Source: Bdellovibrionales bacterium
Lineage (GTDB): Bacteria > Bdellovibrionota > FAC87 > UBA2466
Direction of reading: 5' to 3'
Length of the DNA: 64,000 bases
Assembly: GCA_005776395.1 (NCBI GenBank)
Contig: SXPJ01000048.1
Location: forward strand, 24,211 to 88,210
The position numbers and the translations under genes were made by a program. This document shows positions 5,858 through 23,689 of the stretch, in pieces; position 1 is the stretch's first letter; every line of letters begins with the position of its first letter. The notes below the pieces were generated by a model. It did not search any database. It was given only the letters and a program-made list of their open reading frames with translations, and was not told the DNA's origin.

Positions 5858-5863
5858 TTAGAT

Positions 5864-6139
5864 CTATTCGGATTCGGGAGAATTCCACCCATCAATAAAG
5901 GCTTTGATGCTGATGTCTTCATCCACTTCTGGCCAATGGATTCCGTACCCATAGGGATCGATCTCGAATTTCTTAAGTTGCGCAGCCGAAGCATTGGATA
6001 AACGCTCCGACCAGGCGATTGGAATTGACACCTCTCGGCCGTCATCAAGAACGGCGGTAATAATGTCTTTACCGATTTTTAGATCCTTTATAGCCGGGTA
6101 GATTCTTTCCGGTTTATTTTTTTTTGCTAAAGAACTCAT
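5864..6139 (-). CDS. DUF2442 family protein
   Basis: ...ITAVLDDGREVSIPIAWSERL...IHWPEVDEDISIKAFIDGW is typical of DUF2442. ATG at 6139 preferred over the upstream TTG at 6232. Confidence 0.6.
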   Translation of the reverse strand: MSSLAKKNKPERIYPAIKDLKIGKDIITAVLDDGREVSIPIAWSERLSNASAAQLKKFEIDPYGYGIHWPEVDEDISIKAFIDGWNSPESE

Positions 6140-6356
6140 TCCATTCCTCCACAAATTTTTCTTTCTTGTTTCTGATGATTCCCAGAATATCTCTCTGTTC
6201 CCGAGGAGAGTAACCACGTACGTCTGCGACAATGACTTCAGGCAGCCAGACTTTCATGATGCCGCCTTTTCCTCTCACATGAACGTGACAAGGTTCATTT
6301 CCTTCGTTGCTAAAAAAACGAAACTGGTATCCTTTCTCAGTGTGTATCGTTGGCAC
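6114..6356 (-). CDS. DUF4160 family protein
   Basis: MPTIHTEKGYQFRFFSNEGNEPCHVHV matches the DUF4160 N-terminal signature (..F.FysnE..ePpHvHv). GTG start. Overlaps the DUF2442 gene by 26 nt. Confidence 0.65.
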   Translation of the reverse strand: MPTIHTEKGYQFRFFSNEGNEPCHVHVRGKGGIMKVWLPEVIVADVRGYSPREQRDILGIIRNKKEKFVEEWNEFFSKKK

Positions 6357-6469
6357 TTAAGCTCCGCTTGAATCCAAAAGCCTTTGGTTCGAATCCGTTC
6401 AAGATGTCAGGCCAGAAATCTTCCCATCATTTCGGGAACATGTGGTCGCCAAAATTCAAAAAATTTCAA

Positions 6470-6543
6470 TCGGGGTGGCGAGATTTGAACTCACTACCCT
6501 CTGCTCCCAAAGCAGATGCGCTAGCCAACTGCGCTACACCCCG
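6470..6543 (-). tRNA. tRNA-Pro (anticodon UGG)
   Basis: Minus-strand cloverleaf CGGGGTG/CACCCCG acceptor, D-arm GCGC-AGTTGGCTA-GCGC, anticodon stem TCTGC/GCAGA with loop UUUGGGA (anticodon UGG), T-arm GTGAG-TTCAAAT-CTCGC, discriminator A. Confidence 0.88.
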
Positions 6544-6953
6544 ATAAAGATTACTTCAGTTGCTTTGGTAACTTAGATTACCTCCTTTCTTTTGTCCACA
6601 TCTTCCATTGGGCTTCATGGAAGATTCGTGAAAGATTTTGATTTTTAGCAAGATTTCCACGCTTGAGATGAGGTGTATTAAGTTAAAACCCACATAGCAC
6701 TATCTTTCGATACTCCATGCGACCATCAACACTTGATAGATGATTTGCCTTTTGAGGGAATTACTTTGTTGCTAGATAGGATGTTCAGATTTGGAATAGA
6801 TTTTCATTTAGAATGCGGCGAGCAAGTATCACCATGAGATAATATGCAAAATTTCCATGATGGGAGCCAGGCAATTTCCAAAGAATGAGTCCACCGGAAA
6901 TACAGGCGGTAACGAGGGTTCGGTGGCAATCTGGATGTGGGCCATAAATAACC

Positions 6954-7220
6954 TTGAAACCAGCATTAAGCTCGCAAGAGATAATTCGGGAAAAATTAAC
7001 GCCCGAAAGAGCCTATCATCTCGACATGAATCAATCTTACATATTCACCTACTATGACAGTGAAATCACCGCCGATGTAACCATGCACCTTGGGACTGAT
7101 TTAGGATGCTTAAGGCGGGACAGGTTAGCCAATCATTCGTTAATGATTTACCGTTTTAATGCCAGTGGGAGCTGGGGAGTGTTCTGTGTTTGCGGACGAA
7201 TCGTTTGGGATTTTCATTAG
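6954..7220 (+). CDS. Hypothetical small protein (weak)
   Basis: 88-aa ORF with no recognisable motif, followed by a hairpin terminator. Confidence 0.25.
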   Translation: MKPALSSQEIIREKLTPERAYHLDMNQSYIFTYYDSEITADVTMHLGTDLGCLRRDRLANHSLMIYRFNASGSWGVFCVCGRIVWDFH

Positions 7221-7235
7221 TAGGTCAAAAAGAAA

Positions 7236-7275
7236 AAGCCGACCAGATTTTCATCGTCGGCTTTCCCTAAATTAT
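7236..7275. terminator. Rho-independent terminator-like hairpin
   Basis: GCCGAC-CAGATTTTCATC-GTCGGC stem-loop followed by a T-rich tract. Confidence 0.45.
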
Positions 7276-7384
7276 TTTAATAGCGTTATCTTAGTTGTAT
7301 TCGCAGGATAATTCTAATGAAGAACCGCCAGAACTCTTTTGAGTAGAACTGGCGATTCTTGCTAACTGAGTTCCGTAACCGGAA

Positions 7385-7633
7385 TTAGTTGATTGAACAG
7401 ATTCGGACCAATGAGTGTGAAGCAATGTCATAGCTGTGCGAGCACTCAATGCGACTGGCGCGAACAGTGAAGGTTCCGCTGTTCAGCTCTTCGATTTTGA
7501 CCCCTGCTTTTTTAAGAGCTGAGTAGAGGTTGAGTGCTGGGGTCACAGCAGGCGACAAATGCTTTTTTGATACGTTATCAGTGAGCGTTCCTTGTGCCCA
7601 TATAAATCCATGTGGGGTATATTCCATTCTCAC
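7385..7633 (-). CDS. Hypothetical protein; possibly the remnant of a larger exported protein whose signal peptide has no start codon
   Basis: The upstream in-frame sequence encodes a signal-peptide-like ...KSVFLSLFFFSLIAQASDGLKVKGEKAKAV... with no ATG/GTG/TTG before the preceding stop. Confidence 0.3.
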   Translation of the reverse strand: MRMEYTPHGFIWAQGTLTDNVSKKHLSPAVTPALNLYSALKKAGVKIEELNSGTFTVRASRIECSHSYDIASHSLVRICSIN

Positions 7634-8029
7634 ATCAGAAACATCCCAAGAAGCGCTTTCAATGGCTTCTAGCGTAACAGCTCCAACGCTCTGTAGGGCA
7701 TCGATAACAGCTTTTGCCTTCTCACCCTTAACCTTAAGGCCATCGCTAGCCTGGGCTATGAGTGAAAAAAAGAATAAAGATAAGAAAACACTTTTTATGG
7801 GGACCTCTTTTTGGGTGGACTATTCTACAGGTAAACAAAAAACCACTCTTCTAATTCGAGTAGGACCAAACCACATTCCGAGGAATTTAACGCGTAACGT
7901 ATAAAATATCCAGGAATATAACTTCGTGAAAAATTCATGATTAAAAAACTTCATCTTAAAGAGTCGCAATTGGCAATGAACAGAGTAAAAAGAGCCTTAA
8001 TAAAAACTGTCCAAACCTAAAAAAGTCGC

Positions 8030-8719
8030 TTAGAAACTTGCACTCAAAGAATAAAACAAGACATGATTCTGTCTATCAGATACCGATCTCGGTTTATGAA
8101 CATAATTGAACAAATAAGCCACATCAGAATTTAAATTCTTTGCCCACTGATAATTAAAACCTACATACAATCGGTTTTGATCAAAGCCTGAAGCAGGTCC
8201 CGTCACGGCCGTAGTATTTAGATTAAAGAAAAACTCATTAGCCAGTAGAGCTTTGAAGTTCGAGTTATCAAACCAAGAATGCAAAGTTCTTAACTGGTAA
8301 CGAAGTCTGTAAGCCTTATCTAAAGTCGTATTAATCGCTCTGTACTCTGCTCTAAAGCGATGAATAAAATTACTTTTAGTTCCAACATTATGATTAAAAA
8401 TGTACTGAAGAAAGATTCGAGTTTCGTTGGATGCTGATGGAGAAAAAGAGGGCTGCCAGAGAAATCCAGCTCCTACAGAGTTCTGAGAATTAATATGATA
8501 AATCGGCGCTAATCGAGCTACAAATGTAGCAAGCTCCCCCTCCGAAAAGGAGATACGAGGCTGAATTTCGGTAAAAAAACTTAAAGAATCGGAAAGTGAA
8601 ACCGTTTGATTGAGCTGTATCCAATTCTCAAGCTTACTATCCGCATTAACGGGTGTAATAGGAACTAAAAATAAAATCAGCCCAACTGCAAGATATTTCA
8701 ATGATTGAAGAACTTTCAC
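8030..8719 (-). CDS. Outer-membrane beta-barrel protein (DUF2490-like, tentative)
   Basis: Signal peptide, alternating amphipathic strands, C-terminal ...YSLSASF typical of outer-membrane beta-barrels. Confidence 0.5.
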   Translation of the reverse strand: MKVLQSLKYLAVGLILFLVPITPVNADSKLENWIQLNQTVSLSDSLSFFTEIQPRISFSEGELATFVARLAPIYHINSQNSVGAGFLWQPSFSPSASNETRIFLQYIFNHNVGTKSNFIHRFRAEYRAINTTLDKAYRLRYQLRTLHSWFDNSNFKALLANEFFFNLNTTAVTGPASGFDQNRLYVGFNYQWAKNLNSDVAYLFNYVHKPRSVSDRQNHVLFYSLSASF

Positions 8720-8835
8720 ATGCGCCCCCTAAGCCTATATTTTAATTATAAAAATTCTATCCTACACCTCCTTTTAGGCAAATACTTTCTCGTTAAGATT
8801 GCATTGTTTTCACTGGATAGATAAAACCCCTTTCA

Positions 8836-9924
8836 ATGACAGCCTCTATCTGCTCACCCTCAATCTCTCTTCCACCTTCTCGCCTTCACAAGCTTGGGCT
8901 CTCTTTTCCCTTTATGGTGGCTCCTATGGTGGGGATTAGCCATGTGGCCTTTCGAGAGCTAATACGAAGCTATCTACCTGATTCCCTCTCCCCCCTTCTT
9001 TTTACTGAAATGTTATCTACGCTAAGACTTCCCCATGAGGATCTAAGTGATCTTCCCGGCCCCTTAACTAGCTTAGGAGAAAACTATTTTGTTCCACAGC
9101 TCTTAGGTAATGATGAGACCTACATTTCTAACTCAATTGAAAGACTTTTGCCGTTTCACCCTTGGGGCTTTGATATCAATATGGGATGTCCAGCCTCTCA
9201 TCAACTTCAACACAATTGGGGTGTCCGACTTCTGGGTGACATAGACTATGCTTCACATGTTGTTGCCATTACAAAAAAACATTCTCCTAGACCTGTGAGT
9301 GTGAAGTTAAGAGCTGCCACAGGAGCTTATATCGACCTAAAATATCTTTTAGAGTTCACAAAAATGATGGAAGAGTCAGGGGCCGATTGGATAACACTTC
9401 ACTGTCGCACCCAAAATCAAGGGCACCACGGATATGCTCATTGGGATCTTGTAGGAGAGGTAGCTAGAGCCAGAAAAATCCCTGTAGTTGCAAATGGAGA
9501 TATTCATACTTGGCAAGATGCTATCGACTTAATGAAAACTTATCAGGTCGATGGAGCCATGATTGCTAGAGCGGCTACGGCTCGACCTTGGATTCTATGG
9601 CAAATAGCTAAAAAATTGGGCTATCAAGAAAAACCGACAAAGAGATGGGAAACTGAACCTCCTTGGACTCCTGATGAGGAAGGAAAAGAATATTTTAGAG
9701 CCGTTCTTAGATTCTCCTGTTTACTTGAAGATCATTTCACTGACTCTCCTTTTGCACTAAAAAAACTTCAGTTTTTTGTGGCACAAGGATCACGTTGGTT
9801 GCTATTTGGTCACCAGTTTTTTCATCTAGTGAAACGGTGTAAAAACTTGGTAGAGGTTCGAGATTTTGTAAATGACTACGCAGAAAAGACCCCTCAACCC
9901 ATGGGACAACGGGCAAGAACCTAA
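8836..9924 (+). CDS. tRNA-dihydrouridine synthase (Dus family). True start may be the internal MVAPM at 8914.
   Basis: APMVGISHVAFREL, DINMGCPA, VKLRAATG, ITLHCRTQ...PVVANGDI...DGAMIARAATARPWI match conserved Dus motifs. Confidence 0.85.
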   Translation: MTASICSPSISLPPSRLHKLGLSFPFMVAPMVGISHVAFRELIRSYLPDSLSPLLFTEMLSTLRLPHEDLSDLPGPLTSLGENYFVPQLLGNDETYISNSIERLLPFHPWGFDINMGCPASHQLQHNWGVRLLGDIDYASHVVAITKKHSPRPVSVKLRAATGAYIDLKYLLEFTKMMEESGADWITLHCRTQNQGHHGYAHWDLVGEVARARKIPVVANGDIHTWQDAIDLMKTYQVDGAMIARAATARPWILWQIAKKLGYQEKPTKRWETEPPWTPDEEGKEYFRAVLRFSCLLEDHFTDSPFALKKLQFFVAQGSRWLLFGHQFFHLVKRCKNLVEVRDFVNDYAEKTPQPMGQRART

Positions 9925-9927
9925 ACT

Positions 9928-11088
9928 CTATTTTTTCCGAACTAAAAGTCCCTCCGCTAAAAACTGAGCAATCTTATCGTTAGAATATCCGAGCCCGTGC
10001 ATAATAGAAAAACTATCCTGCCCTAAGGAAGGGCAAGGCTGTAAATTTGGACAATCTGCAAACCCCGCCCAAGACAAAGGATCCGAGTTAAGTTTGATTC
10101 GTGATTGTGAAACTTTAAGAAATTCTTCCCAAGGGATAACTCTAAAAAGACAGGCTTCAACATTTGTGCTGAGAGCTTCCCAATAAGAGGCCGGAGCATC
10201 TAAAAATAATTTCTCAAGTTCTGGAACCAAAGAAAGATCCTCTGCTCTCTCCTTCCAATCTTTTTTATCAACAATCTCACAAAACTGATCCCAGTGTTTT
10301 TTTTGAATAGCCTGCAAAGATATCCATTGCTGATCGCGACATTTATAAAATCTAGAATGGGCATAGGCTCCATTCAACTTGGAAAAAGCATTAAATTTAC
10401 CCTTGTCCTCTTCACTGGCAGATTCTTTCTCAAGGGCCTCGTAAGCTTTAGGAAGATAAAGACTTCTAAAGCCTTCATTGGCATTAGAGATTAAGTGCAT
10501 GCCTCGACGATTAGGATTAACCAAGTGAAGAAGAAGTTTAGTTAAAGGAGCAAAAACACCGCCAATTACATCTCCAAATTGAGCACTGTAGTTTAATCCC
10601 CCCTCTAAAAACCAATGACCGCAACCACTGGTAGCAATAAAATTAAGATCGTGCCCCGATTTTGCACTAAATTTATCACTCATTCCGCGCAATGATAGAT
10701 AGATAAGATCAGGATTTTTTTCTGCCAAATCTGCGTATCCCAAACCCAAACTATCCATGACTCCAGAGCGAAAATTTTCCACAAAAACATCCGCTTCAGC
10801 CGCCAATATTTTTACAATCTCTTGCCCCTCTTTTTTAGTTAAGTCGGTACAGATCGATTTTTTTCCCTGATTGAGCAGCTCAAAAACAGCGGAATATTCA
10901 GGTGCTCTACAGGGATCACCCTCAGGCCCTTTCTCCACCTTTATTACTTCAGCCCCATATTGGGTTAAAATACGGGTTAAATAAGGCCCCGTTAACATCA
11001 CAGAAAGATCTACAACCCGAATATGCTGAATAGGTTTAATAGCTTCATCATTCCATAGAGATTCTGACACGACGCCCCCTATCCGCAA
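9928..11088 (-). CDS. CoA-transferase family III (CaiB/BaiF-like)
   Basis: IRVVDLSVMLTGPYLTRILTQYGAEVIKVE N-terminal signature of family III CoA transferases. Confidence 0.8.
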   Translation of the reverse strand: MRIGGVVSESLWNDEAIKPIQHIRVVDLSVMLTGPYLTRILTQYGAEVIKVEKGPEGDPCRAPEYSAVFELLNQGKKSICTDLTKKEGQEIVKILAAEADVFVENFRSGVMDSLGLGYADLAEKNPDLIYLSLRGMSDKFSAKSGHDLNFIATSGCGHWFLEGGLNYSAQFGDVIGGVFAPLTKLLLHLVNPNRRGMHLISNANEGFRSLYLPKAYEALEKESASEEDKGKFNAFSKLNGAYAHSRFYKCRDQQWISLQAIQKKHWDQFCEIVDKKDWKERAEDLSLVPELEKLFLDAPASYWEALSTNVEACLFRVIPWEEFLKVSQSRIKLNSDPLSWAGFADCPNLQPCPSLGQDSFSIMHGLGYSNDKIAQFLAEGLLVRKK

Positions 11089-11576
11089 ATGAATTAGATT
11101 TTGTGGTTAATAAAATTAATGTTATCTATTTTAGACTCTTGTAAGGGGTTCACTCAAGTTCTCAAAAAACAAAAAGTCTCCTATGGGATCTCTAACAGAA
11201 AACTGAGACGCCTAGCGAAGTAACTGCTCTACGACGCGCCGAACAAGTTTAGTAATTTCAACGTAATTTTGTAATGGCTTAGCACACCTCTGCTTTGCTA
11301 CAAAGCTACGGATCCAATTTGGAAAGAGAAAGAGGTCAGTGCTCCAATAAGAGTCTGAGATAACTTTTGTATCTAGCAAAAATTAACACCACTCAAAATA
11401 TGGGGATTTACTGTTTTGAGTTTAGATGATGTTTTGTTTGCCAAAACAGCCCAAGAATTTAAATAGTTTGGAAGACAAAGAAGACCCAAAAAACTCCTAA
11501 AAAACACAGTATAAGGTGCCAGGTATAAATTATTAAATGACTCCACTTTTTACCATGCGCTGTGGCTCAGCAAGAA

Positions 11577-12314
11577 CTACTGGGCTTTTGTTATGTTTTT
11601 AGGTGGGAAATATTTTGTTTTAGAGGACTCTAATTTTCGATAGGCCACATCATAAAGCATAAAACGATTACCCGCCTGAGTTAACTCTGGATTTAAATCA
11701 GGATGATATTTTTTAGCCAGTTCTCTATATCTTTTTTGAATCATATTCCAATCTCTTTCGTTTGGAATTCCCATCACTCCAAGAGCATTAATAAGTTCTC
11801 TCGGGAGAAGAGTAATAGTCTCATCTTGTCTGCCATGTGGAGTCTGGTCTTTGTTTAAGGGCTGACTTTTAGAGGATTCAGAAGGGGCTGAGTAAACTTT
11901 CGGTTTTGTTCGATATTGAGGTTCTCTGGCTCTCTGTTTTTTTGAACTTATTAATGAAGTAATTATTTTTTCAGTAAGTTCAACGAATACTATTTTAACG
12001 AACCAAATACAGCTTGTCATTAAAGTTACAGGAATACCACTCAAGTCCCACTTTCGCTCACTGGTGAGTCTTTTCTCCAGATCTCCAGGTTGATAATAGG
12101 TGTAATAAAAGGCCCAGAAAAAGAGAAACCCCATAGGAAATAATAGTCCCGATGAATAACGGTTAAATTTGAGTTGCAAAAAATATTCTACAGCTACAAA
12201 AGCACCAATCGAAAGATAGAGTGAGGTGGCATCAGCCTTTTGATTAACGACCCCCTCTTTAATAGGATGGGCACGATTCTGATAAAGGTGAACTCTATAA
12301 TCTCTTACGTTCAT
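11577..12314 (-). CDS. Membrane protein with C-terminal J-domain (DnaJ-like)
   Basis: N-terminal transmembrane segments. C-terminal ALGVMGIPNERDWNMIQKRYRELAKKYHPDLN with an HPD motif. Confidence 0.6.
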   Translation of the reverse strand: MNVRDYRVHLYQNRAHPIKEGVVNQKADATSLYLSIGAFVAVEYFLQLKFNRYSSGLLFPMGFLFFWAFYYTYYQPGDLEKRLTSERKWDLSGIPVTLMTSCIWFVKIVFVELTEKIITSLISSKKQRAREPQYRTKPKVYSAPSESSKSQPLNKDQTPHGRQDETITLLPRELINALGVMGIPNERDWNMIQKRYRELAKKYHPDLNPELTQAGNRFMLYDVAYRKLESSKTKYFPPKNITKAQ

Positions 12315-12607
12315 AAATTACACTCTTAGCTTTTAAAGAAATGCAATTTCGAACCCAAGTTTTTTAGAGTGTTTAGGAGTTGAAGAGTTGATTATCTTTT
12401 TAACAGTGGCTAAGAAGAGTTTAATAGGTTGTCGAATTCATTCAGTTTTTAATGTGCCATCTTTTAAACACTTAAAAGAAAATTAAGTAAGATCTTAATA
12501 ATAGAAGAGTTTTTTACGCAATAGTTAAAAAACGACTAGCCCGATGGCGGTTTCCATGGTCAAATGCCGACTTAAATTTTTTTGTTTCTTTATTGGAAGG
12601 ATAAACA

Positions 12608-13234
12608 ATGGCTCTAACAGATTTAAACTCAAACCTTTTACTCATCTTAAGATGGATTCATATCTTAGCCGGTATCACTTGGATCGGACATCTTTACTTC
12701 TTTAATTTTGTAAATGTCCCCTTTCAAGCGGCGTTAGAAAAAGAGATTAAACCTAAAGTAAATCCCATTCTACTCTCTAGAGCCCTTTGGTGGTTTCGAT
12801 GGGGTGCGATGGTAACTTTCGTGATTGGCTTACTTCTATTCCTTATCAAGTATGGAATGCTTGGCGAAGCCACTGGGTTACTAAAAGACGAATCTGGTCA
12901 GATCACTGGTCGTGCTCAATGGATTATGTTGGGAATGCTGCTTGGAACTATCATGTGGTTCAATGTTTGGTTTGTAATTTGGCCTGCTCAAAAGCAAATT
13001 ATTACCTGGGTAAAAGCAGGACAAACTCCCCCTGAAATGCCGGGCTTAGCAAAGAGAGCTTTATTGTTCTCTAGAACCAACACTTATCTGTCAGCTCCCA
13101 TGCTATTTGCAATGATTGCTCCTAACAACTACGGAGCCTTTAGCTGGTGCACAGTGGTTGTTGTTTCTGTGATCGGATCAGCTGTTATTTGGGGACTTAT
13201 CAAAATGTCCCACAAAGTCGGTCAAACCGTCTAA
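12608..13234 (+). CDS. Integral membrane protein, HemJ/UPF0093-like (tentative)
   Basis: LRWIHILAGITWIGHLYFFNFVNVPF resembles the first HemJ helix (W.KalHii.vv.WfaGlfYL.RlfV). About 5 transmembrane segments. Confidence 0.4.
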   Translation: MALTDLNSNLLLILRWIHILAGITWIGHLYFFNFVNVPFQAALEKEIKPKVNPILLSRALWWFRWGAMVTFVIGLLLFLIKYGMLGEATGLLKDESGQITGRAQWIMLGMLLGTIMWFNVWFVIWPAQKQIITWVKAGQTPPEMPGLAKRALLFSRTNTYLSAPMLFAMIAPNNYGAFSWCTVVVVSVIGSAVIWGLIKMSHKVGQTV

Positions 13235-13242
13235 AAAATTAA

Positions 13243-13286
13243 AGGCCCGTGAGAATATCTTTAAGATTTTTCACGGGCTTTTTTAT
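13243..13286. terminator. Bidirectional rho-independent terminator
   Basis: GCCCGTGA-(19 nt)-TCACGGGC stem followed by TTTTTTAT. Lies between convergent genes. Confidence 0.6.
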
Positions 13287-13338
13287 GTCTTTTATTTTTT
13301 AATTAACTAGATTTTATCGGAGTTCGTCCCAATAAAAA

Positions 13339-13614
13339 CTAACTATCAATTCGCTTTTTAAGCTCTTTACCTACTTTAAAGAAAGGGAGCTTTTTTTCTG
13401 GAACAAAAACATCAGCGCCAGTTTTGGGATTTCTACCCACATAAGACTTATAGCTTTTTACAAACCAGCTTCCAAAACCACGAATCTCAATTCGATCCCC
13501 TTTGACCATAGACATAAAGAAGGAGTCAAAAATAGTATTCACTAGCTCTTCAGCCTTTTTCTTAGTCAAATTTGCTTTGCGCGCTAAATTTTCAATCAAT
13601 TCGGATTTGGTCAC
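13339..13614 (-). CDS. ihfB: Integration host factor beta subunit (HU/IHF family)
   Basis: MTKSELIENLA..., GDRIEIRGFGSW, GRNPKTGADVFVPEKKLPFFKVGKELKKR closely follow IHF-beta. Confidence 0.75.
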   Translation of the reverse strand: MTKSELIENLARKANLTKKKAEELVNTIFDSFFMSMVKGDRIEIRGFGSWFVKSYKSYVGRNPKTGADVFVPEKKLPFFKVGKELKKRIDS

Positions 13615-13819
13615 GATGCCTCCTCAAAACGTAGCCATACAATGCGTTGAGCCATTCAAAATCCTAAGTACTTTATTATTATAAGTTTTTGCTTAACTTA
13701 ATCCAAGTAAAAACAAATATTTGAGTGTTCTCACAATAGGAGTCAGTTGAGAAGGTATTATATATTGCGTCTAAATTAGGAGTCTACACCCCCACCACTT
13801 CTACTCAAAATAGGGGATC

Positions 13820-14431
13820 TCACACAACATCACGCCAAACGTTAGGTTCTTTGGAGCAGATGGCATCAGCTATTTCATAAAGAGGTAAAAAAGAGGTTAA
13901 ATTCTCGCGAAGTGACCTTCCATGAAGCTCGGGGCTGACAAGACATACTTTAAAATTATTTTTTAATCCCTTAACTAATTTCTCCGAAACCGGTTTTCCT
14001 TGAAAACAATCCACCCAAACCCAGTCTGCTTTTCCTTTGAAACAATTCACGAAAATATCAGGCTCGTAAGTGGAAAAACGGATTGCAAACCGGTTTTTAG
14101 CTTCAAAATGGGTCTTTTTAACTAGAGTTGGTAGCACAGTGTCTAAAAAGCAATAGTTCTCAATTTGATATTTTGCCAAAAGCTCTTCAACTCGATTTTC
14201 AAGCCCGTCCTCTTTAGTGTTAAGCCAAATAGGGCCTTGAATTCCAAGACTCTTAAACTCTTTGATCCATATTTCAAAATCATCCCCAAAGGTCCACGGA
14301 TCATGGGAGAGATGAATCGCCCCCCATCTTGAAACATCAGATCTTAAATCGATCTCAACTCCCCATGATTTTTCAAGAGATGCGAGATCTTTGATGGCAT
14401 TAACTCGATGTTTTAAAAATAACTTACTCAT
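13820..14431 (-). CDS. GDPD / PI-PLC-like TIM-barrel phosphodiesterase family protein (tentative); last gene of the glycan operon
   Basis: FLKHRVNAI...EIDLRSDVSRWGAIHLSHD resembles the HR(G)..E.D....dG...v.HD motif of glycerophosphodiester phosphodiesterases. The ATG overlaps the upstream stop. Confidence 0.4.
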   Translation of the reverse strand: MSKLFLKHRVNAIKDLASLEKSWGVEIDLRSDVSRWGAIHLSHDPWTFGDDFEIWIKEFKSLGIQGPIWLNTKEDGLENRVEELLAKYQIENYCFLDTVLPTLVKKTHFEAKNRFAIRFSTYEPDIFVNCFKGKADWVWVDCFQGKPVSEKLVKGLKNNFKVCLVSPELHGRSLRENLTSFLPLYEIADAICSKEPNVWRDVV

Positions 14432-16461
14432 GAACCCATTTCCTCGGTCATTCCCCCTGAAAGTAAAGCGATAGCTGTTAATTGATTTAATCCATCAACT
14501 CCAGACCGCCAGTGAGGTTTTCTCCAGGCTCGCGTAATACTTCTCAGGTTAGGAAAAATATTTTTCGCAACAGCTTGAACCTCTTGATCTGTCGGATTGC
14601 CCTTAATCTCAACTAAGGTACGATTAATATCATTGGGCAAAACTTCAAAAGAGATTTTACAATTAGCGATCTCTTTTAGGGCCTTAAGTAGCGTTCCAAT
14701 AGGGGCATCATTCCAAAAAGTATATCTAACGATAAACTCGAAAGTACTCCCAGCCATGACCTCTTCACGCGTAACCTCTTTTTCCGGAAGATACTGAATA
14801 ACCCAATCAGCAAACTCTTTCTGAGGAGCAATGTGTTTTATAGAATCGGACTCTCTCTTTACAAAACTATCAACCACCTGTTTGGGTGAATGGCCTCGTT
14901 CATTCACGTCTCTTCGATACTTCCATGCAAATCTAACAATTTCATGAGGATCGATAAAAATTTTCAAATCAAACTTGGATCTAAGACCTCGTAAATAAAG
15001 GGTATGGAGCCCCTGAATAATTAGAGTCTTAGTCGGTTTGATCTCTTTAGCCTCTGAAAATATTCCCATGGCATGATCGTAATGAGATTGTAAAACTGTA
15101 GAGCCCTTAGCAAGTTGCAAAGCGTGGCTAGCCATCATTGATAAATGATTAGCTTTAGGATTAAGATGGGTATACTCCTGCCACTTCTCATGGTTACGTT
15201 CCCACTTATGATAATCATCTCCTTCGACGACTAGGGTGTTTTTAGAATTAAAGAGATCTTGAAAAATATGGCTTAGATGATTTTTTCCTGAACCACTATT
15301 TCCTGCAATTCCTAAAATTAAGGGACGAGCTCGTCCCTGAAGTTTAGCCTCTTGCTCAAGAACCAACTTCCAAATAACCAATAAGATTCCTGCCATAGCT
15401 GTTTGTAATAAAGTAAAGGCTACACCGGTCACCATTCCCTCTAAATGGCCCCCTAATTTGGAAAGGAGAACAAAGTTAACCATGTAAATAATCTGAAAGC
15501 CCCAAAAGAGTGCTTTCGAAACATTTAGATAAAGGGCAAAGAAAAGACAGAAGAAAGGGATAACCCAATAATACCAGCCAGGCATAGCATTGGTACCCAT
15601 AAGTAGGGCCCCAAACAAGGAAGCGGATCCAAAGATAAGTCCCCTTTCAGTAATTCTAGAGGAGACGCAAAGGCGTCCTAAAACAACTAGCACAATAAAA
15701 ACCCCTAAATAGACAACTTGCCCGGATCCAAAATTAAGGTTGGCAGCAAAAAGTCTCATAGCTTCAGGCGAAGTCGCGCTCGCATAAAACAACCTACCTG
15801 CATGGTAAACCGGAATAAAACCTAAAGCTGTAATTCCACTCCAAATCGCAAGCCACAATCCTATACAGGCTAATGCTTTCTTTGCGAAATTCTGATGCCA
15901 CAAATAGGCCAGAATAAAAGGGACTAGAACCACTACATGAAACTTAGACAAAGTCGCACAGGCCATTAATAGAGCTGAGGCTTCTATTTTTCGAAGCGTT
16001 AAAAAAATGAGAGATAAAATACACAACATCATAACCACTACATCTAACTGCCCGTGGATATAGGTAATAAAAATAGTAATGGGATTAAACCAATAGAGCA
16101 AAAAGAAAGACCTTCGTCTCTCTCCACAAATTCTCATCATTCCCCACAACAGAAAAACATCCGCCACTAATAGGGGAAGTTTCATTGCGATAAGACTTAA
16201 GGGTATATCGCCCATACTCATAGCACCCAAAATCTTAAAGGCTAAAAACTTAGGTAAAAATAAAATTCCAAATAAAAAGCTTCCATAAGGAAAAAAATGG
16301 GCCGGAGATAATGCCCAGGGATTTTGTCCTAAATGTAAAATTGAGGTGTCTATAAAAGGAATAAATAGCTCTTTTAAATACTGAGAACCGAAAAAGGGCA
16401 TCAGCCCCACACGAATCAAAACACCCCACCAAAACAGACGGTTTTTTAGCAGTTGTCTCAT
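14428..16461 (-). CDS. Fusion protein: N-terminal multi-TM GT-C-like (DUF2029 / mannosyltransferase-like) domain plus C-terminal uridine-kinase / phosphoribulokinase-family P-loop kinase domain
   Basis: About 12 transmembrane helices, then LILGIAGNSGSGKNHLS (P-loop) and VVEGDDYHK, typical of the PRK/UDK family. ATG at 16461 overlaps the GT2 stop (ATGA). Confidence 0.65.
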   Translation of the reverse strand: MRQLLKNRLFWWGVLIRVGLMPFFGSQYLKELFIPFIDTSILHLGQNPWALSPAHFFPYGSFLFGILFLPKFLAFKILGAMSMGDIPLSLIAMKLPLLVADVFLLWGMMRICGERRRSFFLLYWFNPITIFITYIHGQLDVVVMMLCILSLIFLTLRKIEASALLMACATLSKFHVVVLVPFILAYLWHQNFAKKALACIGLWLAIWSGITALGFIPVYHAGRLFYASATSPEAMRLFAANLNFGSGQVVYLGVFIVLVVLGRLCVSSRITERGLIFGSASLFGALLMGTNAMPGWYYWVIPFFCLFFALYLNVSKALFWGFQIIYMVNFVLLSKLGGHLEGMVTGVAFTLLQTAMAGILLVIWKLVLEQEAKLQGRARPLILGIAGNSGSGKNHLSHIFQDLFNSKNTLVVEGDDYHKWERNHEKWQEYTHLNPKANHLSMMASHALQLAKGSTVLQSHYDHAMGIFSEAKEIKPTKTLIIQGLHTLYLRGLRSKFDLKIFIDPHEIVRFAWKYRRDVNERGHSPKQVVDSFVKRESDSIKHIAPQKEFADWVIQYLPEKEVTREEVMAGSTFEFIVRYTFWNDAPIGTLLKALKEIANCKISFEVLPNDINRTLVEIKGNPTDQEVQAVAKNIFPNLRSITRAWRKPHWRSGVDGLNQLTAIALLSGGMTEEMGS

Positions 16462-17186
16462 ACTCTTCCTTGTGAACGGGAAAGCTGGCACATGTACTTC
16501 ACCATTCCCAAAATGGTTTTGTATCGACTAAAAAAACTAGAAGCCCAATTGGAAACTCCATGAACCCTAGGAGGAAAAAGAACCGGTATGGTCTCAACAT
16601 GGAATTTATTTTTAAGAGCACAGAAAAGAACATAAAGATCGAACGCAAAGTTATTTGGAGGCGCAGTTAGAGAATTTAACAATTGTCTTGTAAAAATTTT
16701 AGGCTGGGCATTTAGCTCTTTGGTTTTAATTCCTAAAATTAAAAAGGCTAGGATCTCAAAAATATGAGTTACCCATTTATCTTTCCAGTTTCTTCCACTT
16801 CTAACCCCTTTAACAAGCACCTTATCTTTTTCAACTGACTTTAGCTTTTTCAGAGCCGTAAAAGCATCCCTAGGATCACACTGCTGATCCGCATGGGACC
16901 AACCAATAATCGGCGCTGAAGTATTTTTCAAACCCTGAAGTACGCCATAACCATAACCTAAATTAACTGGAACAATTACAGTACTAAACCACTGGGAAAG
17001 TTCTGTTTTTTGAAGTTCAGTTAACACCTCTTTGGAATTATCCTGACTTCCATTCTCAACAAGAACCAATTGAAATCGTTTCGAGTCGAATCCAGCTTCT
17101 TCAGCAGCGCTGACAGCTCTTTGCAATAGAGTTTTTAAGGATTTAGATTCGTTGTAACAAGGCAATACCAGTTCAAACTCTTTCAC
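16458..17186 (-). CDS. Family 2 glycosyltransferase (polyprenyl-phosphate sugar transferase, DPM1/GtrB-like)
   Basis: LVLPCYNESKSL...LVLVENGSQDNS GT-A signature. GTG start overlaps the upstream stop. Confidence 0.7.
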   Translation of the reverse strand: MKEFELVLPCYNESKSLKTLLQRAVSAAEEAGFDSKRFQLVLVENGSQDNSKEVLTELQKTELSQWFSTVIVPVNLGYGYGVLQGLKNTSAPIIGWSHADQQCDPRDAFTALKKLKSVEKDKVLVKGVRSGRNWKDKWVTHIFEILAFLILGIKTKELNAQPKIFTRQLLNSLTAPPNNFAFDLYVLFCALKNKFHVETIPVLFPPRVHGVSNWASSFFSRYKTILGMVKYMCQLSRSQGRV

Positions 17187-18766
17187 TTTGTAATCTCCTT
17201 TGAAAACTTAGTTCTAGGTTCAAAATGATACCCTCCAAAAATCTCCTGCCAATAAAGTGCTTCAGCTAGAGAGTCGGGATCTCCCCAACACAGATAACCC
17301 GTTAGTGGGATTTCTCTAACTCTAAAACCCTGCTTAATTAAAACCTCAAAAACAGAATCAAGATACATCTCGCCATTAACTAAAATCTCCTGCTTTTTTA
17401 GTTCCTGGATTCCTTGAGCTAATATTTCAATATTTCGAAACCAAAAGGTCCCTACTAATAACGAATCTTTACTTGGATTTTTGGAGAGGGGTGACTTTAC
17501 CGATACTTTTTTAACTTGAGGATAGTCCCCCTGATTGTCAGATTCTACATAGGCAAAGGCCTTAGGATGAGAATCAGCTCCTGGATATCCTTTTATCGTA
17601 AAAATAGCTGCATCGCAGTCGGGGTGAGCCTTAAACCGATTCCATAATCTAGGATCTAAAACAATTCCATGATCACAGGAACTCACAATGACCTCTTTTT
17701 TAAGATCTAGCGCCGTTATTCCAAACTCCGTTGATAAAGCCTGGCCACTAGGCGTCTGTTTTAACGAAACAATCTTTTCCTTGGAGCCCGATAGGTAAGA
17801 CTTTACTGAATCTAAGGTTACAAGAACGGAAGTTTTACTTTTGGGCAATGTTTCCAATGCCCTCTGGTACATGGGAGTCCCTGAAATTGGAATGAAGGGC
17901 TTCGGACAGGAGGTCACTGAAGCAAATCGACTTCCTAGACCTGCCATGGGCATGAGAACTTGATCGACTTCACCTCTTTGCATTCCTAAAAACCTATTGT
18001 GATCTTTCAAGCTTTTTTCCCAATACTCAAAGATTCTTAAATCTTCAGGAGTTCCCCATTGAAAAAAACCAGGAATTTCAAATACCCGGACATGAGCGTT
18101 AGATCTCATTTGAAGTAAGGACTGAACAGTAAGACTCGAGTAGTACTCGCCATTGAGCTGTATCTTATTCGTAATCTGATACTCAATCGCCTCTCTTAAA
18201 AGCTTTGCACTTTTGAAATAGTAGCCCCCTGAAGAGGCAAATTCCTGTTCTCTGTTCTCTGTGAAAGAGCCCTTCTCTTTAACCTCAACTACCCGTTCCC
18301 CCTCCATTCGAGAGTACGCGTACTGTAAAGGGCTTCGATAATGAGCATGATAGCCTCGATAGGAGATGACACAAGCATCACATTCGGTCTCTCTTACAAA
18401 GTTAGAGAAACGAACTCCATCCCAAACCATCGCGTAATCACAATAGCTTAAAAAAACAGGGGCCTCAGGATCTAGAAACTCCATTGCTTTTAATGCAGCA
18501 AAGCCCGGTCCCTGATTATGTTTCTCAATAAAAATCTGTTTTCCTTGAGGTCTCTCCTTCGATAGAACGGTAGGCAGCTCAGTGTTTTTATGATTCTCAG
18601 CCATGACAAAAAAACAGGGCCAGCTCTCAGGAAAGTTCTCCAAAAGTCGCTGAATCATTGGAGTTCCATTGATCGGGATAAGCGGCTTAGGTTCAAGATA
18701 GCCCGCGGCCTGATAACGGGTCCCTTGTCCCGACATCGGAATAAGTAGTTGGATCTTTTTATCCAT
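17183..18766 (-). CDS. Tandem-domain sugar-phosphate nucleotidyltransferase (two RmlA/GalU-like NTP-transferase domains)
   Basis: LLIPMSGQGTRYQ...PKPLIPINGTPMIQ and a second copy LMPMAGLGSRFAS...PKPFIPISGTPMYQ, each like the G-x-G-T-R-(L) nucleotidyltransferase N-terminus. Confidence 0.65.
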   Translation of the reverse strand: MDKKIQLLIPMSGQGTRYQAAGYLEPKPLIPINGTPMIQRLLENFPESWPCFFVMAENHKNTELPTVLSKERPQGKQIFIEKHNQGPGFAALKAMEFLDPEAPVFLSYCDYAMVWDGVRFSNFVRETECDACVISYRGYHAHYRSPLQYAYSRMEGERVVEVKEKGSFTENREQEFASSGGYYFKSAKLLREAIEYQITNKIQLNGEYYSSLTVQSLLQMRSNAHVRVFEIPGFFQWGTPEDLRIFEYWEKSLKDHNRFLGMQRGEVDQVLMPMAGLGSRFASVTSCPKPFIPISGTPMYQRALETLPKSKTSVLVTLDSVKSYLSGSKEKIVSLKQTPSGQALSTEFGITALDLKKEVIVSSCDHGIVLDPRLWNRFKAHPDCDAAIFTIKGYPGADSHPKAFAYVESDNQGDYPQVKKVSVKSPLSKNPSKDSLLVGTFWFRNIEILAQGIQELKKQEILVNGEMYLDSVFEVLIKQGFRVREIPLTGYLCWGDPDSLAEALYWQEIFGGYHFEPRTKFSKEITK

Positions 18767-19712
18767 GAGGTAACTCTCTTTGCTGGCGTAATTTTTCAGT
18801 GGGCAAATCTCTAATAACGGCTCTTATCTCTTTGGGAACCTCTTGGAAGTTGGGTGAAAGCCGATAAAGAATCGCTGTCGCAAGCCATAATTCTGCCATA
18901 TCCTTATCTTTCGAGATTGAAGACACAGGAAAGAAAACCTCGCCTGAAGCTGTAGGTTGCAAAACCCTATCTAGTCTTTCAGAAAAGACTGCTACATCGG
19001 GAAAAAAACACCTAAAAGGCATTGGGTTAGCGGCAAAAAGCTGAAAGAGTTTATCAAAGTTTGGGATCTCAGTAAGCAATGAATAGAGTCCAGAGTAATT
19101 AAAATCTTTGCAGAACTCTTTTTCCAGAGACTCCCATTCGGTAATAATAGAATCGTCATCTCCATGAAGAATGATCCCATGGCTCTCAAGAAAATAGATT
19201 CCAGCATCTCCCTTGATCTGTTTCGAAAGAACCCAACCTGGACGACAGGCCTCTACAAAAATAGTTTCTCTTTGAGTGTTGTTTTTTAACCACCCGATGA
19301 CTCGAGTTCGATCCATGTTAAATTCGTGATAGAAAAGCAATGATGCTAAAGAGTGAAAGTGAAGAACATACTTTTTAGGTAACAAAGCATGAAAGCCGGT
19401 CTCCATTGAGGCCCTTCCAAGGCCGTCCCCTAGGAGAGTTGTTTCTTTAATTAGTTTCGCGTAATTTTCTTCGGCCTCTGATTCTTTCCAAGACTCACTT
19501 TTTAGAACCTGAGCCATGGTTTTGTAATCAACATGAGCTATCCCTGTATTTTCAGTGACTCTATCCAAACGAAAGCCGGTGGCTTTAATCCAAAGGGTAT
19601 TTTTATCCTCTTTGATTGAAATATTTCCTCCAGCCCCTTGAGTCCAGACTGGAATACGAGCGCCTATTTTTTGGCACAAATAGCTTAATTCTATTTCTAT
19701 TTTTTTAGTCAT
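18759..19712 (-). CDS. Class II aldolase/adducin-family protein (MtnB / AraD-like)
   Basis: GAGGNISIKEDKNTLWIKATG and HFHS motifs resemble the class II aldolase N-terminal fold and its zinc-binding His pair. Confidence 0.5.
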   Translation of the reverse strand: MTKKIEIELSYLCQKIGARIPVWTQGAGGNISIKEDKNTLWIKATGFRLDRVTENTGIAHVDYKTMAQVLKSESWKESEAEENYAKLIKETTLLGDGLGRASMETGFHALLPKKYVLHFHSLASLLFYHEFNMDRTRVIGWLKNNTQRETIFVEACRPGWVLSKQIKGDAGIYFLESHGIILHGDDDSIITEWESLEKEFCKDFNYSGLYSLLTEIPNFDKLFQLFAANPMPFRCFFPDVAVFSERLDRVLQPTASGEVFFPVSSISKDKDMAELWLATAILYRLSPNFQEVPKEIRAVIRDLPTEKLRQQRELPHG

Positions 19713-20389
19713 TGCAGTAACATTTCTAGTTCATTCAAAGAGTTGATTACTTTCACATCACTTGGAATGGTATCTTTTTGAATCAATTTTCTAAATTCTG
19801 TTGTCAAAACACTTTGCATTCCCAATTTCAGTGCTGGAGCTATATCAGTTTCTAAGCTGTCTCCCACCATCACGCACTCATTGGGTTTGCAACCTAACTT
19901 TTCAAGAGCAGATTGAAAAAGACTTAAGTGGGGTTTTTCCACCCCCATTTCTTCTGAGGTAATAATAGCAGGAAATAAACTCCCAGTAGGATCTATCACT
20001 CTTAGTTTAATCATCTGGGTTCTAATATTTTCATTAGTTAAAATTATTTTAGGCAATTTACCTAATCGTCCCTCAAAAAGTTTTTGGCGTTCCAAGCTTC
20101 TCCATTGCTCACCAATATGTTCAGCTATTTTTTTTTCATAGGCCTGCATCAGATCTAAAACTGCACCATGAGAATATTGATTATTTGTATCGAGTAACTG
20201 CTTGAAATAGAGAATTCGATTTCTAGCCCCCACATGCCCCTCTCCCAATCGAGACTTAATTATCTGACGCGCTATTAAAAATTCCTCAGAGAGGGGATCG
20301 ATTCCTATCGCTTTAAGAGCATAAGCATAGGCAGCCTCCGCGTCATAAAGCGTGTCATCTAAATCTAAAATAAGGCAGGTCTTTGTCAT
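19709..20389 (-). CDS. HAD-superfamily hydrolase/phosphatase
   Basis: ILDLDDTLYD (motif I DxDxT), later K and DD motifs. First gene of the operon. Confidence 0.8.
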   Translation of the reverse strand: MTKTCLILDLDDTLYDAEAAYAYALKAIGIDPLSEEFLIARQIIKSRLGEGHVGARNRILYFKQLLDTNNQYSHGAVLDLMQAYEKKIAEHIGEQWRSLERQKLFEGRLGKLPKIILTNENIRTQMIKLRVIDPTGSLFPAIITSEEMGVEKPHLSLFQSALEKLGCKPNECVMVGDSLETDIAPALKLGMQSVLTTEFRKLIQKDTIPSDVKVINSLNELEMLLQ

Positions 20390-20426: not shown

Positions 20427-20476
20427 ACCAAAAGGTACCACCAAAAGGCACCAAAAGGTACGGCTTTACTTTGGGT
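20427..20476. repeat. CCAAAAGG motif array ending in a 26-nt direct repeat (copy 1 at 20451..20476)
   Basis: caccaaaaggtaccaccaaaaggcaccaaaaggtacggctttactttgggt. The last 26 nt recur at 21051..21076 (25/26 identical). Confidence 0.8.
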
Positions 20477-20513: not shown

Positions 20514-20981
20514 TTACAATAACAGTATCGAAACAGGGTAACTAATCCCCTCTCCAATAGTTATAGCCTCTTTATCTTCACCGATTAAAATAAATCGGTT
20601 TATATTCAGGGCAGTTCCAAGGAACTTATGCTCCTCTTTCTTCAGACCTCTTCCCTTTAAAGGTAGGACAATTTCAATACGATCGACTATCGCTTCAGGA
20701 ATTAAGTACTGCATCTGACGAAGCCCAGACTTAAGTTGCTCTAGGGCCTTAGTTACCAAACGTTCCTCTAATTTGAACTTAACCTCCCGGAGACGAAACA
20801 GAGTTCTATTTCCAATAGAGGTAGAACTAAAGAGATCGGGCAGGGACAATCCTTTTCCTAAACAAATATCGGTTTTGTAAGAGGGATTAAGATACTGAGC
20901 AAGTTGCTTGTCTCCAACTGAAAGAAATACCTCCCCTTCAGTCACTCTTAAAATATCAGCACAATAGGCTTCAGGGTTCAA
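20514..20981 (-). CDS. Hypothetical protein, flanked by 26-nt direct repeats
   Basis: 155-aa ORF with no recognisable domain. Confidence 0.45.
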   Translation of the reverse strand: MNPEAYCADILRVTEGEVFLSVGDKQLAQYLNPSYKTDICLGKGLSLPDLFSSTSIGNRTLFRLREVKFKLEERLVTKALEQLKSGLRQMQYLIPEAIVDRIEIVLPLKGRGLKKEEHKFLGTALNINRFILIGEDKEAITIGEGISYPVSILLL

Positions 20982-22923: not shown

Positions 22924-23313
22924 ATGAGACCTTTACGAGTAACGCGAAAGCCACTGGACCCTGAGTTTCAAAAAACAGAAGTTCTTCGCATCTCTCAGCT
23001 TATTTCATCAACTGTTCATCCTTTAGCGATTTATAGTTTTGGTTCGGCAGCGGAAAATAAAGCCACGGATCAATCCGATTTTGATTTTTTAATAGTAGTA
23101 GAAGATTCTGAAAATTTGACTAAGGCAAGAATCAAATTGAGAAAGCTCATGCCTCTATCTCAATTCCCAGTTGATCTTATTTGGAAAAAAAGAACAGAGT
23201 TTTTAACCCAACGAGAGATAGGTGGGATTGCTTGGGTTGTCTGGGAAGATGGTAACTGTACTTTTCATACTAACTCCAAGGAGTTTATCAATGACAAAAA
23301 AACGAAAATTTAA
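22924..23313 (+). CDS. Minimal nucleotidyltransferase (MntA-like antitoxin) of an MNT-HEPN pair
   Basis: IYSFGSAAENKATDQSDFDFLIVVE is the GS...SD.D nucleotidyltransferase signature. Confidence 0.7.
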   Translation: MRPLRVTRKPLDPEFQKTEVLRISQLISSTVHPLAIYSFGSAAENKATDQSDFDFLIVVEDSENLTKARIKLRKLMPLSQFPVDLIWKKRTEFLTQREIGGIAWVVWEDGNCTFHTNSKEFINDKKTKI

Positions 23314-23689
23314 AAAAGAATATTCTGTGGAGTTACTTCGAATTGCCGAGGGAGATCTGCAGACTGCTAGAGGCCTTATTCAAGTTAAGATGGGAAGACG
23401 GGAGAATATTTTTTTCCATCTAGAGCAAGCCATAGAAAAGGCTCTCAAAGCAGTTCTCTGCTCACGAGAAATTGCGACTCCTTTTGTTCATGAAATGGGA
23501 ATTGTATTAGAGCTATTTCCAGCCGACTTAGAAGTTCCTCGTTCTGAGGAGATGTTAGATTTAGGACAGTTTGCTACTATTCGTCGTTATGAGGAAGATA
23601 TTGCTGATCTCACGGATGAAGAGGTTCAGGCTACTCTTGATTTAGCTGTTCAAACCTTGGATTGGGCTAAAAATAATTTGGGAAAATAG
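23291..23689 (+). CDS. HEPN-domain protein (HepT-like toxin)
   Basis: RRENIFFH R-x(4-6)-H motif inside a helical HEPN-like region. Overlaps the MNT gene by 23 nt. Confidence 0.7.
   Translation: MTKKRKFKKEYSVELLRIAEGDLQTARGLIQVKMGRRENIFFHLEQAIEKALKAVLCSREIATPFVHEMGIVLELFPADLEVPRSEEMLDLGQFATIRRYEEDIADLTDEEVQATLDLAVQTLDWAKNNLGK

Follow-up and report, generated by a model that had tools for sequence, protein, structure and literature searches.

A six-gene operon of a Bdellovibrionales bacterium as a candidate glycan-decoration system with its own sugar-activation pathway

Introduction

Decoration of extracytoplasmic glycans with sugars carried on polyprenyl phosphate is a known process. In the GtrA/GtrB/Gtr* systems for O-antigen glucosylation in Shigella and Salmonella, and in the ArnC/ArnT system acting on lipid A, a GT-C membrane protein is teamed with a GT2 synthase of the polyprenyl-phosphate sugar. 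In the pentofuranose systems dependent on phosphoribosyl pyrophosphate (PRPP), which comprise PPPRS/PRP, a MATE flippase and GT136 (Kelly et al. PNAS 2024, PMC11127046), and in the synthesis of mycobacterial decaprenyl-phospho-arabinose, a pentose is added outside the cytoplasm from a polyprenyl-phosphate donor that derives from the pentose-phosphate pool and involves a HAD-type phosphatase step; the PRPP-dependent systems explain the ribofuranose (Ribf), xylofuranose (Xylf) and arabinofuranose (Araf) of bacterial side chains. Here we describe an operon that resembles both kinds of system and appears to add a donor pathway of its own, apparently an undescribed one. It occupies positions 13820-20389, on the minus strand, of a 64,000-nucleotide stretch (the window) of contig SXPJ01000048.1 from a Bdellovibrionales bacterium (GCA_005776395.1).

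The soluble enzymes of this operon recall other pathways. In the haloarchaeal non-carboxylating pentose bisphosphate pathway, a HAD enzyme akin to that of the operon, a ribulose-1,5-bisphosphate (RuBP) 5-phosphatase, is likewise paired with an enzyme of the class II aldolase family that acts after RuBP. In plant-type phosphoribulokinase (PRK), residues R64, Y103, H105, R159, D160 and R164 bind the phosphate of ribulose 5-phosphate (Ru5P) and catalyse transfer (bioRxiv 10.1101/422709), and PRK-like genes in candidate phyla radiation (CPR) genomes have been taken as evidence for Calvin-cycle-like metabolism (bioRxiv 10.1101/386292). Xylulofuranose, a ketopentofuranose, is known from Escherichia coli O95 and O97, Yersinia enterocolitica, Campylobacter jejuni RM1221, Eubacterium saburreum, Devosia and chloroviruses (PMC8707391, PMC7685785, PMC9614988); for E. 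coli O95 and O97, no known gene makes its nucleoside diphosphate (NDP)-activated form (PMC7685785). Strains with proven xylulofuranose include Y. enterocolitica O:5,27 and O:10, Lachnoanaerobaculum (Eubacterium) saburreum T15, Devosia submarina KMM 9415 and chloroviruses MT325 and TN603; ketofuranosides are labile to acid. Full-text literature searches returned no paper describing a fusion of PRK with a GT-C domain or the gene set reported here, the nearest being the different, PRPP-based pentofuranose system (PMC11127046). A first-pass annotation of this DNA had likewise recognised no described pathway in the combination of enzymes.

Results

The operon consists of six consecutive open reading frames (ORFs), given here from first to last with the two domains of the fifth on separate lines.

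19709-20389, minus strand: HAD-IA phosphatase, 226 aa; first gene; Pfam Hydrolase/HAD_2, with the DxDxT motif
18759-19712, minus strand: class II aldolase-like Zn enzyme, 317 aa, with a C-terminal extension of ~130 aa; Pfam Aldolase_II
17183-18766, minus strand: tandem nucleotidyltransferase (NTase), 527 aa; Pfam NTP_transf_3 in two stretches
16458-17186, minus strand: soluble GT2, 242 aa, DPM1/GtrB/ArnC-like; Pfam Glycos_transf_2
14428-16461, minus strand: GT-C and kinase fusion, 677 aa from its ATG; fifth gene
15343-16461, minus strand: N-terminal polytopic membrane domain of the fusion, GT-C fold, residues ~1-372
14428-15342, minus strand: C-terminal PRK-type kinase domain of the fusion, residues ~373-677
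13820-14431, minus strand: TIM-barrel protein resembling glycerophosphodiester phosphodiesterases (GDPD) and PI-PLC, 203 aa, cytoplasmic; last gene, assigned by predicted fold and motif

The first-pass annotation had named the same six kinds of protein, and matches to Pfam, NCBIfam and PDB profiles together with fold comparison confirm them all. The HAD phosphatase is recovered by Pfam and NCBIfam matches, the class II aldolase/adducin-like protein by Pfam, NCBIfam and PDB matches, the tandem-duplicated sugar-phosphate nucleotidyltransferase as two Pfam NTase domains, the domain of the GT2 polyprenyl-phosphate glycosyltransferase as Glycos_transf_2 with ArnC as its nearest relative, and the GT-C-like membrane domain with its kinase of the PRK/uridine-kinase family as a GT-C fold joined to a full PRK fold. 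The GDPD/PI-PLC-like TIM barrel is borne out by structure prediction and motif conservation alone, with no match to a sequence model.

These genes travel together across distant lineages. In a scan of one genome per species, relatives of the fusion protein were present in at least 502 species genomes, with hosts in Bdellovibrionota, Bacteroidota, Lachnospiraceae, CPR, DPANN archaea, Rickettsiales and Nitrospirota as well as Erwinia mallotivora, Acetobacter lovaniensis and Zeaxanthinibacter; gut Lachnospiraceae and Bacteroides and plant-associated Erwinia and Azospirillum are among them. We searched 55 loci, each 14 kb or longer and from a different species, by tblastn with the six window proteins. 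All five partners of the fusion lay within 6.4-11.9 kb in 41 of the 55, and 52 had at least four partners, though gene order varies between related loci. Recurrence of the set in dozens of genomes that are not related shows that the arrangement did not arise by chance; the synteny search that the first-pass annotation had called for finds a neighbourhood conserved across phyla. Two of the loci also place it in a glycan context. The Erwinia cluster adjoins gnd and an ABC-transporter gene, and that of Azospirillum brasilense a pair of wzm/wzt-like transporter genes as well as gmd and GT1/GT4 genes; these are O-polysaccharide loci of the ABC-transporter type. Both include the flippase gene gtrA, which is found as well in Zeaxanthinibacter, on an E. 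coli plasmid and in at least 15 other loci, and in Flexibacter GtrA is fused to GT-C and PRK in a single protein.

The C-terminal 300 residues of the fusion protein are ~40% identical to cyanobacterial PRK (E = 2e-36) and contain the full PRK fold, P-loop included. Aligned to CrPRK, the residues that bind Ru5P and those that catalyse transfer (R64, Y103, H105, R159, D160, R164) are invariant across 17 divergent fusion proteins. The N-terminal domain has 10-12 helices and is modelled as a GT-C_B type (PIG-M/ALG3-like); the sequence evidence for this part is in line with the model but weaker. HGQxD and FPY motifs are invariant in it. The fused GT-C domain may not be an acceptor-specific transferase, since many relatives have an additional, variable polytopic membrane protein. 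These extra proteins, which in Proteobacteria and Bacteroidota are not homologous to each other, resemble by analogy the acceptor-specific Gtr* enzymes. Other fusions tie further components together: a 1,058-aa protein joining GT-C, PRK and aldolase-like domains is encoded in three CPR loci (L042, match ~4215-7328; L043; L060) from Saccharibacteria, Kaiserbacteria and Paceibacteria, and a 566-aa fusion of the HAD and aldolase-like enzymes in one viral locus.

Among cluster-associated HAD proteins, all 33 examined matched NCBIfam NF053830, the haloarchaeal RuBP 5-phosphatase, ahead of every other family (best E = 5e-56), and the enzyme is a putative pentulose-1,5-bisphosphate 5-phosphatase. The profile built from the 33 cluster-associated aldolase-like homologues matched PDB 3m4r at 2e-32 and FucA at 1e-12. 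In this family E104, H118, H120 and H178 (Zn ligands and catalytic Glu) and G28, N30 and S32 (the phosphate-binding GN.S motif) are invariant, so that the three His ligands, the Glu and the GN.S motif that characterise the class II aldolase/epimerase/dehydratase superfamily (FucA, RhaD, AraD, MtnB) are all in place. The closest NCBIfam models, at best 2e-29, are the aldolase domain of the bifunctional rhamnulose-1-phosphate aldolase/SDR, that is, ketose-1-phosphate aldolase domains; 9 of the 33 proteins also weakly matched NF053831, the ribulose-1-phosphate (Ru1P) aldolase model. We would predict a ketopentose-1-phosphate epimerase or aldolase.

The two halves of the NTase, NTn (residues ~1-262) and NTc (residues ~263-527), are 28-29% identical to one another, and each keeps the GxG[TS]R...PKP signature. 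Nearly every related locus has both paralogues, fused or as neighbouring genes. In the PDB, NTn weakly matches HddC; NTc has weak IspD/TarI-like matches. NTn (window 17981-18766) also aligns end to end with PDB 4evw (residues 7-256 against 2-251, E = 4e-4), an uncharacterised structural-genomics entry named 'nucleoside-diphosphate-sugar pyrophosphorylase', which may be a solved member of the NTn family.

For the 203-aa protein, no Pfam or NCBIfam match was obtained at E <= 0.01, and comparison of its family profile with PDB sequences gave no GDPD and nothing else meaningful. Its AlphaFold2 model (pLDDT 93) is, by Foldseek, most similar in the PDB to glycerophosphodiester phosphodiesterases (TM 0.72-0.77, E = 6e-7). 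The family has more than 3000 members, some labelled 'PI-PLC/GDPD family protein' by NCBI, and H8, R9, E26, D28 and H43 are invariant in it, forming an HR...ExD...H motif. An Asn is also invariant (N71-x-K73) at the position where a GDPD would presumably carry its third metal-binding Glu (E-x-K). This change may mean an altered metal dependence, or a transferase or cyclase reaction instead of hydrolysis. The protein has no signal peptide. As for the GT2, its best NCBIfam and PDB relative is ArnC, the undecaprenyl-phosphate Ara4FN transferase (7e-10); the HADxQxDP motif is present and the usual C-terminal transmembrane helices are absent from its 242 residues. It is probably a polyprenyl-phosphate glycosyltransferase.

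Viral copies of the cluster separate its parts. The GDPD-like protein is encoded on 62 IMG/VR contigs (L092-L153), many with giant-virus identifiers for metagenome-assembled genomes (MAGs). In 63 viral loci we counted the GDPD-like protein 63 times, NTn and NTc 58 times each, the kinase domain 50 times, the aldolase-like protein 40 times and the HAD 28 times, while the GT2 and the GT-C domain were present in just 3 loci each. The viral kinases are soluble, and in contigs of giant-virus type the PRK-like kinase has an N-terminal extension of ~200 aa. Neighbouring genes encode glycosyltransferases of the GT61, GT2 and GT11 types and FkbM methyltransferases. L095:1994-13101 and L131:7376-17056 are examples of such contigs, with kinase, HAD, aldolase-like protein, both NTases and GDPD-like protein but neither a DPM1-like GT2 nor GT-C. 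As viruses keep the soluble enzymes mostly without GT2 and GT-C, and beside glycosyltransferases of the Leloir type, the soluble module probably makes a nucleotide sugar: the five soluble proteins would be an autonomous module whose product is used by cytoplasmic Leloir-type transferases, and the GT2 and GT-C domain would be a prokaryotic delivery arm. The GDPD-like gene adjoins the NTase pair in 39 of 58 viral loci, and because these proteins are kept together in the soluble module we assign the GDPD-like protein and both NTases to donor synthesis. One contig with a T4 baseplate gene (L120:3600-9877) carries a tight row of GDPD-like, aldolase-like, NTn, NTc, 257-aa PRK and HAD genes, directly followed by a gene for a TET-associated DNA glycosyltransferase (TAGT, PF20691), which suggests that hypermodification of phage DNA draws on the same activated sugar. 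A collection of cultured phages contained no homologue of the GDPD-like protein, and there the kinase query matched ordinary uridine kinases only.

The cluster is also found on a mobile element. A search at the DNA level, which would miss divergent copies, detected a plasmid-borne copy in only 2 of the 5426 complete genomes of E. coli; one carrier was from human stool and the other from a bullfrog. On the 33-kb plasmid (L084, NZ_CP145712.1, 4986-17325) eight genes, at 6022-14984, lie between two copies of IS26, encoding NTase, GtrA, GT2, PLC/GDPD, a 'uridine kinase', HAD, aldolase and a hypothetical polytopic membrane protein. The closest relatives, at 80-97% identity, are metagenomic betaproteobacterial sequences (Orrella, Crenobacter). 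These observations point to a glycan-modifying module that was recently mobilised into E. coli. No Yersinia or Campylobacter was among the matches to the E. coli copy, which were mostly metagenomic and betaproteobacterial.

Read directly from the sequence, all five junctions of the Bdellovibrionales operon overlap, by 4 nt at four of them (three ATGA, one GTGA) and by 8 nt at the other; in short form the set is ATGA three times, GTGA once and ATGGATAA once. On the coding strand junction 1 is GCAATGACT (ATGA type), junction 2 is CATGGATAA (the 8-nt overlap), junction 3 is AAGTGAAA (GTGA type), junction 4 is GTATGAGA (ATGA type, with AAGGAAG just before it) and junction 5 is TCATGAGT (ATGA type). 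The first-pass annotation had described every junction as ATGA or GTGA; overlap at all five stands, and junction 2 is of neither type. In the ORF listing the fusion gene runs on as far as the GTG at 16491, but its start is most likely the ATG at 16461, which gives 677 aa and has AAGGAAG ahead of it; the public gene call (677 aa) agrees with this start.

In the public gene calls for a metagenome contig of identical sequence the six genes are the same, and identical proteins are present on metagenome contigs (Logan SRR8894379, ENA, GCA_005801785.1); the closest named relatives, at ~75% identity, are Bdellovibrionales and Bdellovibrionota MAGs. The operon is similar to its neighbours in GC content, and the genes that flank it are housekeeping genes, which encode IHF-beta, a protein with a DnaJ domain, a UPF0020 methyltransferase and SUI1. 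Promoter-like matches in a scan of the operon were at chance level, and a terminator scan found only a terminator-like hairpin at 20434-20452, between the HAD gene and a directly upstream ORF of 155 aa (20514-20981, minus strand, TTG start). That ORF, for which no Pfam or NCBIfam match was found, was considered as a further member and left out, as none of the related loci has a counterpart of it. At 22924-23689 on the plus strand, about 2.5 kb upstream of the operon, overlapping genes for a nucleotidyltransferase (PF01909/Polbeta) and a HEPN protein form a pair of the kind typical of MNT-HEPN toxin-antitoxin modules (Pfam, identical contig).

Discussion

Taken together, these results suggest that the operon is, on balance probably, a glycan-decoration system that is self-contained and activates its own sugar, leading from Ru5P to an activated pentose, a lipid carrier and finally a surface glycan. 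We infer each chemical step and the identity of the sugar from homology, starting from the observed gene structure, folds, catalytic residues, neighbourhood and fusions. The cytoplasmic PRK domain would phosphorylate Ru5P, or an epimer of it, at C1 to give a pentulose 1,5-bisphosphate (RuBP), from which the HAD enzyme would remove the 5-phosphate, leaving a ketopentose 1-phosphate. The aldolase-like Zn enzyme would act on this ketose 1-phosphate, most likely by epimerisation through an enediolate or through retro-aldol and aldol reactions. Both NTase domains and the GDPD/PLC-like enzyme would then produce a nucleotide-activated glycosyl donor, the ArnC/DPM1-like GT2 would move the sugar onto polyprenyl phosphate, and a GT-C enzyme would use the lipid-linked sugar outside the cytoplasm, this being the fused domain and, in many relatives, also the extra variable GT-C-like protein. 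The first-pass annotation had proposed an NDP-activated (keto)pentose or a pentitol phosphate. The activated (keto)pentose is supported by the PRK residues, the HAD resembling RuBP 5-phosphatase, the ArnC-like GT2 and the GtrA of relatives; a pentitol phosphate is less likely, because the loci examined have no reductase and no phospho-alcohol transferase and because viruses pair the soluble enzymes with Leloir-type glycosyltransferases.

Several observations weigh against this proposal. The aldolase-like, NTase and GDPD-like steps need unprecedented chemistry, a ketose 1-phosphate not being an anomeric phosphate, and the roles given to the second NTase and to the GDPD-like enzyme are guesses. 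The HAD proteins score below the curated equivalog cut-off of 330 bits for NF053830, the aldolase-like proteins below those curated for the characterised families nearest to them, and the kinase domain, with 199.5 bits against NCBIfam NF005655, below the curated 236. A tblastn search found no GtrA in the window. In the GT-C domain, the first external loop has no acidic residue that is invariant among family members, and the domain could for this reason be a lipid-binding scaffold, not a transferase. Finally, the chromosome of E. coli S1-CAM-01-A, the one host of the plasmid module that was examined, has an O35-type wzx/wzy locus; since this host is neither O95 nor O97, it does not connect the module with any glycan known to contain a pentulose.

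We infer only that the sugar could be a pentulofuranose such as xylulofuranose. The more specific proposal, that the soluble module is the missing route to a nucleotide-activated ketopentofuranose (xylulofuranose or ribulofuranose), with RuBP as a biosynthetic intermediate outside carbon fixation, is tentative, and we regard it as doubtful. Migration of the phosphate would be one way to reach such a donor. The first NTase would nucleotidylate the 1-phosphate; attack by the anomeric 2-OH, catalysed by the PLC-like enzyme, would give a 1,2-cyclic phosphate, which would be opened to an anomeric 2-phosphate; and the second NTase would make the true glycosyl donor, so that each conserved enzyme would be used once. 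This scheme is chemically coherent and unproven.

Other products of the same enzymes have to be considered. NDP-heptose is made by a kinase, a phosphatase and an NTase (HldE/GmhB/HddC), and by the same logic the operon might lead from a pentose 5-phosphate through a 1,5-bisphosphate and a pentofuranose 1-phosphate to an NDP-pentofuranose and a polyprenyl-phosphate-linked aldopentofuranose (Araf or Ribf). The combination of kinase, HAD phosphatase and NTase mirrors that route, down to the weak match of NTn to HddC; the GT2 is nearest to ArnC, a user of a UDP-pentose; and GT61 genes, a family that includes xylosyl- and arabinofuranosyl-transferases, neighbour the viral modules. We consider this unlikely nonetheless: the PRK-specific residues for Ru5P, which is a ketose and is phosphorylated at C1, are retained in the kinase, an aldose-ketose isomerase is lacking, and the second NTase and the GDPD-like enzyme are left unexplained. 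Ribf, Xylf and Araf side chains are, moreover, already accounted for by the PRPP-dependent PPPRS/MATE/GT136 systems (PMC11127046). The weak IspD/TarI-like matches of NTc, and a GDPD fold that normally cleaves glycerophosphodiesters, bring to mind a teichoic-acid-like alternative, in which the NTases would make a CDP-type activated pentulose or pentitol phosphate, transferred as a phosphodiester, and the GDPD-like enzyme would trim or edit phosphodiesters. There is a precedent in pneumococcus, where CDP-xylulose is an intermediate of CDP-arabinitol synthesis. This seems quite improbable, as no locus examined contains a reductase, TagF, LicD or CDP-alcohol transferase; the GT2, GtrA and GT-C proteins point instead to a polyprenyl-phosphate glycosyl donor, and the GDPD-like protein, which has no signal peptide, persists in viruses devoid of the membrane components.

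It is also conceivable that the PRK, HAD and aldolase-like enzymes form a catabolic or salvage route (RuBP to Ru1P to dihydroxyacetone phosphate and glycolaldehyde), loosely tied to an unrelated pair of glycosyltransferases. The three enzyme families are those of the haloarchaeal pathway, with the HAD nearest to its RuBP 5-phosphatase model and 9 of 33 aldolase-like proteins weakly matching its Ru1P aldolase. Such a loose association is very hard to reconcile with the co-conservation across phyla of the NTases, GT2 and GDPD-like protein, with overlaps at all junctions, with a kinase joined to a GT-C membrane domain (and in one case GtrA fused as well) and with loci inside O-antigen clusters; Pfam and NCBIfam domain searches of the operon, too, found no ribose-1,5-bisphosphate (R15P) isomerase. 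We think it highly improbable. All of these alternatives either fail to explain some conserved components or disagree with what synteny and gene fusions show.

If the operon is indeed a glycan-decoration system with its own donor pathway, there is a real chance that this pathway is biochemically new. Its core would be the phosphoribulokinase fused to a GT-C membrane domain and the enzyme with a phosphodiesterase fold. Its spread is unusually broad, from bacteria and archaea to phages and giant viruses and also to a mobile module on an E. coli plasmid, and the cluster is a concrete candidate for the activation of ketofuranoses such as xylulofuranose. On the doubtful reading of a ketopentofuranose donor, that one donor would have three uses, namely glycosylation through a lipid carrier in bacteria and archaea, capsid glycans of giant viruses (chloroviruses reportedly carry xylulofuranose), and DNA hypermodification in T4-like phages. 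A PRK family related to glycans would also be a caution for Calvin-cycle annotations; the CPR triple fusions, for example, could confound such calls.

In comparison with known systems, the operon shares features with several. Its kinase has the PRK fold, P-loop, Ru5P-phosphate-binding residues and catalytic Asp of Calvin-cycle PRK and of the 'cyanobacteria-specific' and archaeal PRK homologues (PDB 9qko, 5b3f), but it is joined to a GT-C membrane domain, lacks the regulatory cysteines and CP12 context, scores below the NCBIfam subfamily cut-off and belongs to an operon holding no linked RuBisCO genes. Whereas the haloarchaeal pathway is catabolic and uses R15P isomerase, RuBP would derive here from a PRK-type kinase in a biosynthetic context of NTases, GT2 and GT-C; the operon proteins score below the equivalog cut-offs, and the aldolase-like protein is nearer to RhaD-type domains. 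Unlike the PRPP-dependent pentofuranose systems, the operon does not rely on PRPP: Pfam and NCBIfam searches of its six proteins found neither a UbiA-like phosphoribosyltransferase (polyprenyl phosphoribose synthase) nor a MATE domain, activation would proceed through a PRK-type kinase, nucleotidyltransferases and a GT2, and the membrane domain has a GT-C_B fold, not that of GT136. The likeness to the Gtr systems extends to the GtrA flippase of many related loci, to location in O-antigen loci and to the mobile E. coli module. The window itself is without GtrA, however, the GT2 of the operon is without C-terminal membrane helices and a GDPD-fold enzyme is added. Gtr systems draw on housekeeping UDP-glucose, whereas this operon devotes five soluble enzyme domains to a donor of its own and joins its GT-C domain to a kinase in an arrangement that is conserved across phyla and not serotype-specific.

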